Assembly (NCBI GenBank): GCA_964573405.1
Contig: CAZNJK010000002.1
Location: forward strand, 12,710-76,709
Origin: an uncultured Christensenella sp.
Lineage (GTDB): Bacteria; Bacillota; Clostridia; Christensenellales; UBA1242
Reading direction: 5' to 3'
DNA: 64,000 bases
Under the pieces are notes generated by a model, which saw nothing but the letters and a program-made list of their open reading frames with translations, searched no databases and was not told the DNA's origin. The position numbers and the translations under genes were made by a program. This document shows, piece after piece, positions 20,007 through 21,818 of the stretch. Each line of letters begins with the position of its first letter. The first letter of the stretch is position 1.

Positions 20007-20022
20007 TTAATTACCTCCTTTG

Positions 20023-20120
20023 GTCCTAGCGGACGGCTATTGTCTTATATTTTTTGTTATTGTATTGACCATTTCTGGTCAAGTCCTAGCGGACGGCTAT
20101 TGCCTTATATTTTTTGTTAT
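20023..20120 (-). repeat. Intercistronic 60-nt tandem repeat, 2 copies (set A)
   Basis: GTCCTAGCGGACGGCTATTG(T/C)CTTATATTTTTTGTTAT occurs at 20023 and 20083 (period 60). The copies are separated by the palindrome TTGACCAtttcTGGTCAA (20065-20082). They fill nearly the whole spacer between the stop at 20125 and the start at 20006. Confidence 0.9.
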
Positions 20121-20124
20121 CCTA

Positions 20125-20790
20125 TTAACTGCCCCAAATTTCGTGGTATTTTGCGTTTTGGATGCCGTTTGCGAGTGGGTCCGAAACGCCTACTGTTTGG
20201 ACTGTTTCTACCACAAATACGATTTTTATTTGTTTTTCGGCGAAGAAGTTGTTTACGTTTAGTTTTATATCGATGGTGCCGTTAGCGAAAGGTATGATTT
20301 CGCCGGCGGTTACTTCGTGGCTTATCATTCCTGTGCCATAACCGGTTTTGCACACATACCAAATATCCTCAACTAGTGGGTTTGTGCTGAAATTGACTTC
20401 TACCCAGTCAGACAATTCAATTGCACTGCTTATATCCACATAATTATCCCAAATTAGGAGTTGGTTATTTTCGTCATACACGTCGTCGAATACTAGCGAC
20501 ATTTTTGCACGCATATATGCGTTACTGCTATTGTTGTCCATTTGGACGCCTAGGTTAATTTTGACTTTACTACCCGGCAAAACTGCGTCGGCACTGCCTT
20601 CGATTGGTGTAACGACGCTTGCGGTATTTGTGATATTTACAACAATTGGGGGAGCGAATGTGATGTTAAGGTACTGGGTACTGGTTTTGACATACCACGC
20701 GAATGTGAATGAAAAAACCGATAGCACAGCAACGAATACTGCGACTACAGCGTAAAGCGAAACTAATTTATCGACTTTTTTCTTCTTCAT
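20125..20790 (-). CDS. TasA/CalY-like secreted protein with SipW-type signal peptide (221 aa from MKKKKVDK...)
   Basis: The likely true start is the ATG at 20790, preceded by AAGGAGGAG; the listed start at 20862 lies inside the repeat array. N-terminus: MKKKKVDKLVSLYAVVAVFVAVLSVFSFTFAWYVKTSTQ. C-terminal motif IVFVVETVQTVG. Confidence 0.55.
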   Translation of the reverse strand: MKKKKVDKLVSLYAVVAVFVAVLSVFSFTFAWYVKTSTQYLNITFAPPIVVNITNTASVVTPIEGSADAVLPGSKVKINLGVQMDNNSSNAYMRAKMSLVFDDVYDENNQLLIWDNYVDISSAIELSDWVEVNFSTNPLVEDIWYVCKTGYGTGMISHEVTAGEIIPFANGTIDIKLNVNNFFAEKQIKIVFVVETVQTVGVSDPLANGIQNAKYHEIWGS

Positions 20791-20802
20791 CTCTCCTCCT
20801 TT

Positions 20803-21003
20803 GTCCTTGCGGACGGCCATTATCTTATGTCTTTTGTTATTACACTTGCCATTTCTAGTCAAGTCCTTGCGGACGGCATTATCTTATTATCTTTTCTTAT
20901 CGTACTTACTTGATTTGGTCAAGTCTTTGCAGACGGCTATTGTCTTATTTTGCTTGTTATTATACTTACTATTATTTAGTCATGTCATAGCAGACTATTA
21001 TTG
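20803..21003 (-). repeat. Intercistronic 60-nt tandem repeat, about 3.5 copies (set B)
   Basis: 12-nt palindromic cores sit at 20803 (GTCCTTGCGGAC), 20863 (GTCCTTGCGGAC), 20923 (GTCTTTGCAGAC) and 20984 (GTCATAGCAGAC, degenerate). Each is followed by GG(C)(C/T)ATT(G/A)TCTTAT...TTGTTAT. Confidence 0.9.
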
Positions 21004-21627
21004 TTAATAATTGCTTACCATATCTTTGAATATTTGTGGGGCGTATTGCCAGCCATCGGTATTGGAATTAATGAGTGCTGTTACTGCTCCGCCTTGATAT
21101 TGCACTGCATAAACGGTTAATTTATAATTCACATCGCTTCCGCCGATTGCGTTAGTTATGTTTCCTACTTGCCAACCGTCGCATAGGTCACAACTATAGT
21201 TTTGATTTAATGGCGACATATAGTAGAAGTAGTCCATATTTGTTCCTACTACCCAGTATTGACCGTTTACCAGTGAACTTGCTGTTGTAATTGGGCGGAT
21301 TAATCTTGAATAATCGCTAGTGATTTTCACCATTATAAATACTGCACCACTTGTACTGGTATTTTTTATAGTTAGTTTTGTGTTATTTGTCACGCTATAT
21401 TGGGTATTTGGGACAAGTGTGTCTGAGAATTCTATATAGCCGTTGGAGTTTCCGCCCGTCACTTCTATACTTACTGAGCCGGCTGTAATGACTTGGCTAG
21501 CGGAGTGGGTGTCGAAGAAATATGAAAGGGTCATGGTTGACAAAAACACGACTGCTGTGATTATACATATTGAAAATATGGTTATACATGCGATTTTATC
21601 TTTTCGTGTCCATTTTTTTCGTTCCAT
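21004..21627 (-). CDS. TasA/CalY/camelysin-like secreted protein with SipW-type signal peptide (207 aa)
   Basis: SD AAGGAGGAG. N-terminus ...ITAVVFLSTMTLSYFFDTHSASQVITAGSVSIEV closely resembles the TasA/CalY signal-peptide junction (GGGTFAYFSD...FxAGTLDL). C-terminal KLTVYAVQYQGG. Confidence 0.6.
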   Translation of the reverse strand: MERKKWTRKDKIACITIFSICIITAVVFLSTMTLSYFFDTHSASQVITAGSVSIEVTGGNSNGYIEFSDTLVPNTQYSVTNNTKLTIKNTSTSGAVFIMVKITSDYSRLIRPITTASSLVNGQYWVVGTNMDYFYYMSPLNQNYSCDLCDGWQVGNITNAIGGSDVNYKLTVYAVQYQGGAVTALINSNTDGWQYAPQIFKDMVSNY

Positions 21628-21640
21628 CTCTCCTCCTTTG

Positions 21641-21752
21641 GTCTTTGCAGACCGCTATTGTCTTACTTGTTTTGTGATTATACTTACTTTTTGCTGGTCA
21701 AGTCCTTGCGGACGGGTCTTGGCAGACCGCCATTAATTTGTTATTACATCGA
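21641..21752 (-). repeat. Intercistronic 60-nt repeat, about 2 copies with a duplicated core (set C)
   Basis: Cores at 21641 (GTCTTTGCAGAC), 21702 (GTCCTTGCGGAC) and, immediately adjacent, 21716 (GTCTTGGCAGAC). Same flanking consensus as sets A and B. Confidence 0.85.
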
Positions 21753-21818
21753 TTATATTTATTTTCATCATCCAAAATAGACATTTCATTTGTTCAATTT
21801 TTTAAGTCTTTTATTTTG

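Follow-up and report, generated by a model that had tools for sequence, protein, structure and literature searches.

Tandem hairpin units in the intercistronic spacers of a candidate surface-fibre operon from an uncultured Christensenella-like bacterium

The stretch of contig CAZNJK010000002.1 analysed here (64 kb from an uncultured Christensenella sp., hereafter the window) carries on its minus strand a unit of five genes, g1 to g5, the first four of which are distant paralogues with a common transmembrane (TM)/signal N-terminus. The spacers that separate g1 from g2, g2 from g3 and g3 from g4 hold tandem copies of a unit of about 60 nt, each organised around a 12-nt core, GTCYGNNNRGAC, that can fold into a short hairpin, and the last core of each spacer abuts the Shine-Dalgarno (SD) sequence AAAGGAGG of the gene that follows (Table 1). 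The repeat is absent from the 11-nt spacer between g4 and g5. One promoter and one terminator enclose the five same-strand genes, and their synteny is kept in more than 12 loci.

A pattern search for GTCYGNNNRGAC returns nine matches in the window against 0.40 expected, a number reached in 0 of 100 shuffles. Eight of these lie in the three spacers, every one on the minus (mRNA) strand, and the remaining one (30936-30947) is a chance match inside a collagen-like repeat. Once the degenerate core GTCTGCTATGAC is included, the spacers hold five GTCC..GGAC, three GTCT..AGAC and one degenerate copy, exactly the tally given in a preliminary description of this DNA. The tandem organisation in units of about 60 nt proposed there is also borne out: Tandem Repeats Finder (TRF) gives a period of 60-61 in spacer 2, and in a repeat search the copies start 60 and 120 nt apart. 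Run over both strands of the whole window, an nhmmer profile of the unit matches only 20023-20131, 20803-20996 and 21641-21754, in agreement with the claim that the unit lies nowhere else in the window. Furthermore, an exact half-unit pattern has 0 matches in GTDB representative genomes, Joint Genome Institute (JGI) metagenomes and viral contigs, and blastn of spacer 2 against plasmids and phages returns no match, so that across all these sets the unit is restricted to this operon. The statement that the spacers consist almost entirely of units has to be narrowed for spacer 1, only about half of which is recognisable unit sequence; it runs from a decayed 5′ part (90 nt that are at best a decayed copy) through the core doublet GTCTGCCAAGAC-CC-GTCCGCAAGGAC and one full unit to the SD-proximal core.

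The best-kept parts of the unit flank the hairpin, in the order TAAGAYAAT(R)GCC, hairpin (GTCY GCNA RGAC) and (NN)TTGACC, and the middle of the unit is more variable than these flanks. The last core, first placed 2-4 nt from the SD, in fact leaves 0-1 nt to AAAGGAGG and 3-4 nt to GGAGG. Stems of 4 bp that contain GC and enclose a loop of 4 nt precede AAAGGAGG only at g2, g3 and g4, and an SD-abutting hairpin as a genome-wide habit was therefore rejected. Two further candidates within the unit were set aside: TTGACCA-GAAA-TGGTCAA as a conserved second hairpin, which occurs in only 2 of about 15 units, and a coding mini-open reading frame (TTG start, in some units), whose frame is broken by units of 60, 61 and 62 nt and which has no SD before its start.

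Table 1. Features of the operon, its spacers and related repeats. Positions are those of the window unless a comparison locus (L number) is named; cores are written 5′ to 3′ on the mRNA strand, and ΔG is the RNA folding free energy
Feature	Position	Strand	Remarks
g1	21819..23441	-	540 aa; TM/signal N-terminus, FTFAW motif; paralogue
g2	21004..21627	-	207 aa; weak SipW-type signal-peptide match
g3	20125..20790	-	221 aa; true start is the ATG at 20790
g4	19212..20006	-	264-aa paralogue
g5	16732..19200	-	transglutaminase-core lipoprotein; 11 nt after g4
Operon promoter candidate P1	23469..23497	-	TTTACA-17-TAAAAT; conserved in orthologous loci
Terminator-like hairpin 3′ of g5	16644..16674	-	operon end
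Spacer 1 (g1 to g2)	21628..21818	-	191 nt, 3 cores (L026: 251 nt, 4 cores; L009: not complete)
Core GTCT-GCCA-AGAC	21716..21727	-	5 bp counting flanking G and C
Core GTCC-GCAA-GGAC	21702..21713	-	
SD-proximal hairpin of g2, GTCT-GCAA-AGAC	21641..21652	-	ΔG -7.4 kcal/mol including flanking G-C pair
Spacer 2 (g2 to g3)	20791..21003	-	213 nt; three 60-61-nt units; 4 cores, first degenerate (L026: 208 nt, 4 cores; L009: 407 nt, 7 cores)
Degenerate core GTCTGCTATGAC	20984..20995	-	T.T mismatch; overlaps ATGACA-18-TATAAT at 20988..20959
Core GTCT-GCAA-AGAC	20923..20934	-	
Core GTCC-GCAA-GGAC	20863..20874	-	
SD-proximal hairpin of g3, GTCC-GCAA-GGAC	20803..20814	-	ΔG -6.1 kcal/mol; abuts AAAGGAGG at 20795-20802
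Spacer 3 (g3 to g4)	20007..20124	-	118 nt; partial unit and one full unit; 2 cores (L026: 2 cores; L009: 1 core)
Core GTCC-GCTA-GGAC	20083..20094	-	followed by second hairpin TTGACCA-GAAA-TGGTCAA
SD-proximal hairpin of g4, GTCC-GCTA-GGAC	20023..20034	-	AAAGGAGG at 20014-20021
Family-B heptads	L012 3975-4040, 4790-4855, 5685-5740, 2060-2160		same places in L013, L017, L031
Family-B units upstream of g1 promoter	L012 2190-2301; L017 3142-3278; L013 1110-1220		
nrdD-nrdG spacer repeat	35626-35826	+	110-nt unit, 1.8 copies, 95% identical

For comparison, 31 loci were fetched, all of them from metagenome assemblies. Homologues of g3 number 24, at 38-97% identity, and protein-level scans contributed only 6 further loci from GTDB genomes and 1 from JGI metagenomes; among named relatives, uncultured gut Clostridia and Christensenella-like metagenome-assembled genomes are the nearest. 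Gene order is kept as MFS (major facilitator superfamily)-DegV-g1-g2-g3-g4-(deaminase)-transglutaminase-GerA. Two sister lineages (L007-9 and L026-30), 85-92% identical to the window at the nucleotide level in g2-g4, both carry the unit of the window, with different arrays; we call this unit family A. In a distant species (45% protein identity; L012, L013, L017 and L031) the same three spacers are filled by an unrelated unit of about 61 nt, family B, and the profiles of the two families do not match each other in either direction.

The compensatory change between GTCC..GGAC and GTCT..AGAC had been taken as a sign of selection on a stem or a dyad, and the covariation is much stronger once the sister lineages and family B are added. 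Among 28 distinct 12-mers, 90.2% of cells pair, compared with 68.3% in column shuffles (0 of 500 reach the observed value); double-sided changes occur at all four stem pairs, and controls with slid partners give 21-63% pairing. Because pooling two families inflates this result, the shuffle was repeated within each, giving 94% versus 88% for family A (p ~0.013) and 88% versus 76% for family B (p ~5e-5). The SD-proximal hairpin also varies in a compensatory manner between orthologous spacers, with GTCT/AGAC versus GTCC/GGAC in spacer 1, GTCC/GGAC versus ATCC/GGAT in spacer 2 and GTCC/GGAC versus GTCT/AGAC in spacer 3. Applied to 15 SD-proximal regions, RNAalifold predicts this hairpin alone and leaves the SD unpaired; likewise, the hairpin (ΔG -4.4 to -8.2 kcal/mol) is present in both the minimum-free-energy and the centroid folds of all three spacers, with the SD free. 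Loop positions G5 and A8 are invariant across hairpins, and although the pattern used to extract family B required G..A, every unit of every family-B array gave such a hairpin. Of 19 arrays, 18 have a fully paired SD-proximal hairpin, as against intact hairpins in 29 of 41 other copies and 7 of 15 5′-most copies; the arrays are mutually non-independent.

The suggestion that copy number varies between strains is upheld by the sister lineages, in which spacer 2, for example, measures 213, 208 or 407 nt (Table 1). Assembly can miscount an array that exceeds the read length, and several contigs end within one; the arrays differ, however, in unit sequence as well as in unit number, so the variation is not merely an assembly effect. 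Furthermore, the doublet GTCTGCNAAGAC-CC-GTCCGCAAGGAC is found in spacer 1 or in spacer 2 depending on the lineage, which indicates that units move from spacer to spacer.

Family-B units end in a 12-nt hairpin, GGGC-GATA-GCCC, GCGT-GAWA-ACGC or GTGT-GAAA-ACAC, and the last hairpin of the array, again a 4-bp stem with a GNNA loop, stands 0 nt before AAAGGAGG. Spacer 2 holds 3, 1, 3 and at least 4 such hairpins in the four assemblies. The family-B spacers open with three to four heptads (GTGRAAA), after which comes a longer hairpin, GTGTAATTAGGGGTTAATTTACAC; in the region upstream of g1 the heptads form an inverted pair. Two family-B units (hairpins GCGTGACAACAC and GTGCGATAGCAC) stand after the DegV terminator and ahead of the conserved g1 promoter, and so outside the transcript that this promoter should give. 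In L031 the region after g3 (937-1200) is unlike that of the other family-B strains, with an inverted heptad pair, a GTGCGACAGCAC hairpin and then unrelated sequence, and may have been rearranged or belong to a chimeric contig.

About ten other species have spacers of 17-39 nt without any repeat before most of g2-g4; a few single spacers are longer, yet these too are without the hairpin unit. The short-spacer set includes the closest species outside the family-A group (L022, 67% identity). A neighbour-joining tree built on g3 places lineage A within the short-spacer species and lineage B in a different clade. Since the intervening species have short, repeat-free spacers, two independent gains of the arrays are the parsimonious and probable reading of the tree, with repeated loss as the alternative. 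Two of the loci (L003 5670-5914 and L004 3418-3662) have a 245-nt g3-g4 spacer that is free of tandem repeats and holds GGTC-TTGC-GACC, an A-like hairpin in reverse-complement orientation. One clade has a dCMP/cytidine-deaminase-like gene between g4 and the transglutaminase gene (L014 6631-7035, L015 3110-3514; also L018-L020).

This distribution raises the question of whether the arrays serve any purpose at all. They could be a neutral or selfish minisatellite, in which palindromic cores promote slippage or unequal crossing-over, the hairpin is simply the substrate of expansion and the arrays are tolerated as junk. Their lineage-specific occurrence and absence from most relatives, the fast gain, loss and movement of units between spacers, the frequent contig breaks within arrays and the chimeric cores (GCGT..ACAC) that resemble recombination junctions would all be expected of such a minisatellite, and an unrelated 110-nt tandem repeat does occupy the nrdD-nrdG spacer of the same window. 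It does not readily explain why compensatory changes keep the stems at orthologous positions, why the SD-proximal copy stays intact in 18 of 19 arrays and, in two unrelated families, keeps a constant distance to GGAGG, or why all three spacers of one operon are occupied in two separate lineages and nothing else in 64 kb. We consider purely neutral arrays doubtful.

Whether the conserved element acts as RNA or as DNA is addressed by several features. Within a single genome, stems differ at up to three of four positions and still remain complementary, and their loop lacks symmetry; both traits favour a single-stranded sense-strand hairpin over a symmetric protein-binding DNA dyad. Indeed, the invariant G5 and A8 fit a G.A-closed tetraloop on the sense strand and not a symmetric DNA dyad. 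The uniform orientation, the fixed distance to GGAGG in two unrelated families and the position of the best-kept copy at the SD point the same way. An attempt to call the strand from G.U versus A.C intermediates gave no asymmetry (1 versus 0 in family A, 5 versus 7 in family B); with no excess of G.U, the stem covariation alone does not fix the strand.

Control at the DNA level would make each unit an internal promoter and/or an operator, so that g2, g3 and g4 would have regulated starts of their own. Internal promoters had been listed among the possible roles, with the reservation that a TTGACC/TACAAT spacing of 12 nt is wrong; the conserved TTGAC beside the core is indeed followed by a TAYRAT box, at a spacing that we refine to 12-13 nt and that still lies outside the sigma-70/sigma-A range. 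No sense-strand site with hexamers 16-18 nt apart and a -10 element with A2 and T6 is conserved in L026. The 3′ arm of the core does place xGGACx 17-18 nt upstream of the TAYRAT box, but just 11 of 15 units retain TAnnnT in the box, and the last core is followed by the SD only, with no -10 box. In a sigma-70 scan one unit passes (ATGACA-18-TATAAT, 11/12 match, 20988..20959), and this promoter-like match is not conserved in the sister lineages; family-B units hold no conserved one, their sole 10/12 match (TTTACA-17-GATAAT, L012 4835-4863) lying in the spacer-2 leader. The family-B units upstream of the g1 promoter are placed as upstream binding sites might be, although half-sites that vary within one genome at up to three of four positions while staying complementary, around an asymmetric G..A centre, are hard to square with a sequence-specific symmetric dimer. 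The case for internal promoters is thus weak, and DNA-level control as a whole appears improbable. A by-eye comparison with the consensus sequences of sigma-H, sigma-E, sigma-K and extracytoplasmic function (ECF)-like promoters found no consistent fit across units.

On the opposite strand each core reads as a hairpin followed by a T-rich tract, CYATTRTCTTA in family A and TTYCTATC in family B, and a lenient scan flags the plus strand at 20801-20816 and 21639-21654 and the equivalent sites of L026, as would be expected if the units were weak terminators of antisense transcription. However, stems of 4-6 bp with interrupted T-tracts are far below typical intrinsic terminators, the operon end is already closed by a bidirectional terminator, and the sense G..A becomes an antisense U..C with no known stabilising role; we regard this explanation as very improbable. 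The sense strand has no T-run after any core, and the antisense matches to an intrinsic terminator are weak.

An array of mRNA binding sites for a dedicated RNA-binding regulator, which would recognise the hairpin and its flanks and control translation or stability cooperatively, would agree with the conserved flanks UAAGAYAAURGCC (5′) and UUGACC (3′), with the regular repeat spacing and with the three to four (GUGRAAA) heptads that family B adds at the start of each spacer. Neither the operon nor the scanned neighbours encode a candidate RNA-binding protein, Rfam offers no match, and the AGAC variants lose the GGA of the stem, which makes a CsrA-type site unlikely; such an array seems to us distinctly improbable. 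CsrA-type sites as such were rejected, since the AGAC variants and family B are without GGA. In Rfam searches at gathering or relaxed thresholds, the window yields only a tRNA and the arrays of the window and of L012 give nothing below E 0.6.

The preliminary description had called the flanking genes TasA-like. At the sequence level this finds no echo: g1-g4 have no Pfam match, nor do 16 orthologues of g3, and there is no match to TasA/camelysin sequences (Peptidase_M73/TasA, solved TasA) and no sequence match in the PDB. An AlphaFold (AF2) model of g3 (predicted local distance difference test, pLDDT, 77.6) has the TasA fibre 8aur_A as its best Foldseek match in the PDB (E 2.8e-4, probability 1.0, template-modelling score only 0.33), and TIGR04088, a SipW-type signal, matches g2 at 15.2 bits, under its cut-off of 19. 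With these weak structural and sub-threshold signal matches, the TasA-like label is plausible though weakly supported, and we speak of a candidate fibre operon in this sense. The SD of g1 is poor (GGGTAAAATGT-ATG, 23442-23460, minus strand; kept in relatives), whereas g2-g4 have AAAGGAGG, a contrast that suggests low-level translation of g1.

We propose that the units constitute an mRNA hairpin module beside each ribosome-binding site, serving in processing, 5′ protection or insulation, and that the arrays expand by recombination between cores; we put the probability of this reading at roughly 40%. The module would consist of a conserved UAAGA set in A/U-rich sequence, a stem of 4-5 bp closed by a GNNA loop and, 0-1 nt further on, AAAGGAGG. 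The five-gene operon would be transcribed from the single promoter upstream of g1, and the transcript of the long spacers would then undergo RNase Y-like cleavage within the unstructured linker rich in A/U. RNase Y sites are reported to combine a GA dinucleotide, set in unstructured A/U-rich sequence, with a hairpin further downstream (bioRxiv 10.1101/2023.03.12.532304), and the conserved UAAGA supplies a GA in an unstructured A/U context, resembling the weak preference reported for the B. subtilis enzyme. In B. subtilis, the gapA product of the cut at cggR is reportedly stabilised by the hairpin that follows this cut (bioRxiv 10.1101/2023.03.12.532304). In the candidate fibre operon, the hairpin by the strong SD and a bound ribosome would presumably form a joint cap that insulates the downstream message at its 5′ end, with the hairpin keeping the SD single-stranded. 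As an outcome, g2, g3 and g4 would be expressed independently of g1 and of one another. Such a scheme would be a variant of selective RNA processing and stabilisation (SRPS), known from operons whose products assemble into a complex; in Clostridia, the cip-cel operon is an established example of subunit stoichiometry controlled by stem-loops (PMC4423207). The tandem arrays would arise because the 12-nt cores are short direct repeats, between which unequal recombination or slippage could duplicate, delete and shuffle the 60-nt units, and chimeric cores such as GCGT..ACAC fit growth and shrinkage by recombination between cores. Upstream copies may be largely redundant and decaying, and copy number may tune the efficiency of processing. 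We infer that the repeats tune the expression of individual fibre subunits.

This mRNA module accounts for cores that lie solely on the mRNA strand and solely in the g1-g2, g2-g3 and g3-g4 spacers, for the compensatory changes at orthologous positions and for the gradient of decay away from the SD. It also accounts for the apparent convergence, in which a separate species has placed an unrelated unit of about 61 nt, with like hairpin geometry and 0 nt before AAAGGAGG, in the same three spacers. Several points weigh against it. The stems are just 4-5 bp, compared with -14 to -24 kcal/mol for the SRPS stem-loops tested (PMC4423207); sense-strand G.U intermediates are not in excess; about ten related species do with spacers of 17-39 nt and no hairpin; the two family-B units upstream of the conserved g1 promoter could have an mRNA role only through read-through or another promoter; and the second, unrelated intercistronic tandem repeat, in the nrdD-nrdG spacer, hints that spacers tend to be duplicated in general. 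That the arrays act as a recombination-driven copy-number 'rheostat' on the mRNA, through which lineages of gut Clostridia change subunit ratios quickly as 60-nt hairpin modules are gained, lost and exchanged ahead of single fibre-subunit genes, in the manner of a contingency locus that arose at least twice independently in this operon from unrelated sequence, is in our estimate unlikely.

Around the operon lie an MFS transporter, DegV and the GerA/B/C germination genes. The terminator at the operon end is bidirectional, and the upstream DegV gene is also followed by a terminator-like hairpin. Just downstream of the gerA operon, a 3852-aa open reading frame (481-12039, minus strand) with Listeria-Bacteroides repeat (Flg_new) domains probably encodes a giant surface protein. 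At 30806-31108 (plus strand) there is a 100-aa, BclA-like collagen-like (G-P-T)n protein; it adjoins a family-2 glycosyltransferase (31291-32358, plus strand), and the pair suggest a spore-surface glycoprotein. Between nrdD (33467-35623) and an nrdG-type activase (35951-36472) is a 327-nt spacer, much of which is the 110-nt repeat; this repeat is unrelated in sequence to the fibre-spacer unit and contains a long-range inverted repeat, GATTATCAAAAAATC...GATTTTTTGATATATC.

Should the mRNA module act in the way proposed, it would show how a bacterium could uncouple and retune single subunits of a surface fibre within one operon, using tiny, easily duplicated RNA elements where promoters or long stem-loops might be expected. 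What looks like an independent origin in two lineages, and the hypervariable copy number, would then point to a recurrent selective need, for which host immunity, phage and adhesion are candidate pressures on the surface structure of a gut commensal. The module is compact (about 25 nt of hairpin and SD) and could serve to set expression ratios in synthetic Firmicutes operons. If the arrays are instead neutral, they offer a clean case of palindrome-driven minisatellite dynamics in bacterial intercistronic DNA.

Among known systems, the 5′ mRNA stabilisers of Firmicutes, such as the ermC and aprE leader hairpins and the STAB-SD of cryIIIA (GAAAGGAGG), lie in the 5′ untranslated region of a primary transcript and are neither repeated nor intercistronic. 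They share with the fibre-operon module a structure and/or a strong SD near the 5′ end (AAAGGAGG being similar to the STAB-SD), which would block 5′-to-3′ decay. The repetitive extragenic palindromes (REP) and bacterial interspersed mosaic elements (BIME) of enterobacteria are palindromes of about 20-40 nt in alternating orientation, with hundreds of copies genome-wide; these too are small palindromes clustered in intercistronic spacers and able to affect mRNA stability. The unit described here, in contrast, has a single orientation and is found in one operon only; within the 64 kb it is confined to the three spacers. Its period, about 60-61 nt, and its short palindromic core with a GNNA loop also recall clustered regularly interspaced short palindromic repeats (CRISPR), in which identical repeats alternate with unique spacers; here the repeat is 12 nt, the arrays lie between cistrons and the 48-nt segments between cores are homologous to one another (60-100% identity).

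The closest parallels concern RNA processing. The SRPS stem-loops of the cip-cel cellulosome operon of Ruminiclostridium cellulolyticum are likewise intergenic cis elements of a single Clostridium operon; the products of both operons are subunits of an extracellular assembly, here a predicted one, and stem-loops are gained and lost in a lineage-specific manner (PMC4423207). The hairpins of the candidate fibre operon are intergenic and lie within an operon for predicted subunits of one complex, as SRPS elements do. The SRPS stem-loops are single, long (-14 to -24 kcal/mol in tested examples) and situated at the 3′ end of the protected gene (PMC4423207), whereas those described here have 4-5 bp and -4 to -8 kcal/mol, recur in tandem every 60 nt and have their conserved copy abutting the downstream SD. 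Single hairpins, at -4.4 to -8.2 kcal/mol, are near the published SRPS search threshold of ΔG < -5 kcal/mol (PMC4423207) and far weaker than its tested examples. RNase Y cleavage upstream of a 5′ hairpin, as in B. subtilis cggR-gapA and S. aureus saePQRS, likewise involves an A/U-rich unstructured stretch with GA followed by a hairpin (bioRxiv 10.1101/2023.03.12.532304); the known cases are single sites with longer hairpins, whereas the sites in the fibre spacers are repeated and their cleavage is proposed here by analogy. A literature search found no report of such repeats. Intercistronic hairpin cis-elements are thus known as such, and what is unusual here is the combination of tandem 60-nt modules, an SD-abutting mini-hairpin, restriction to a single operon, hypervariable copy number and probable convergence.

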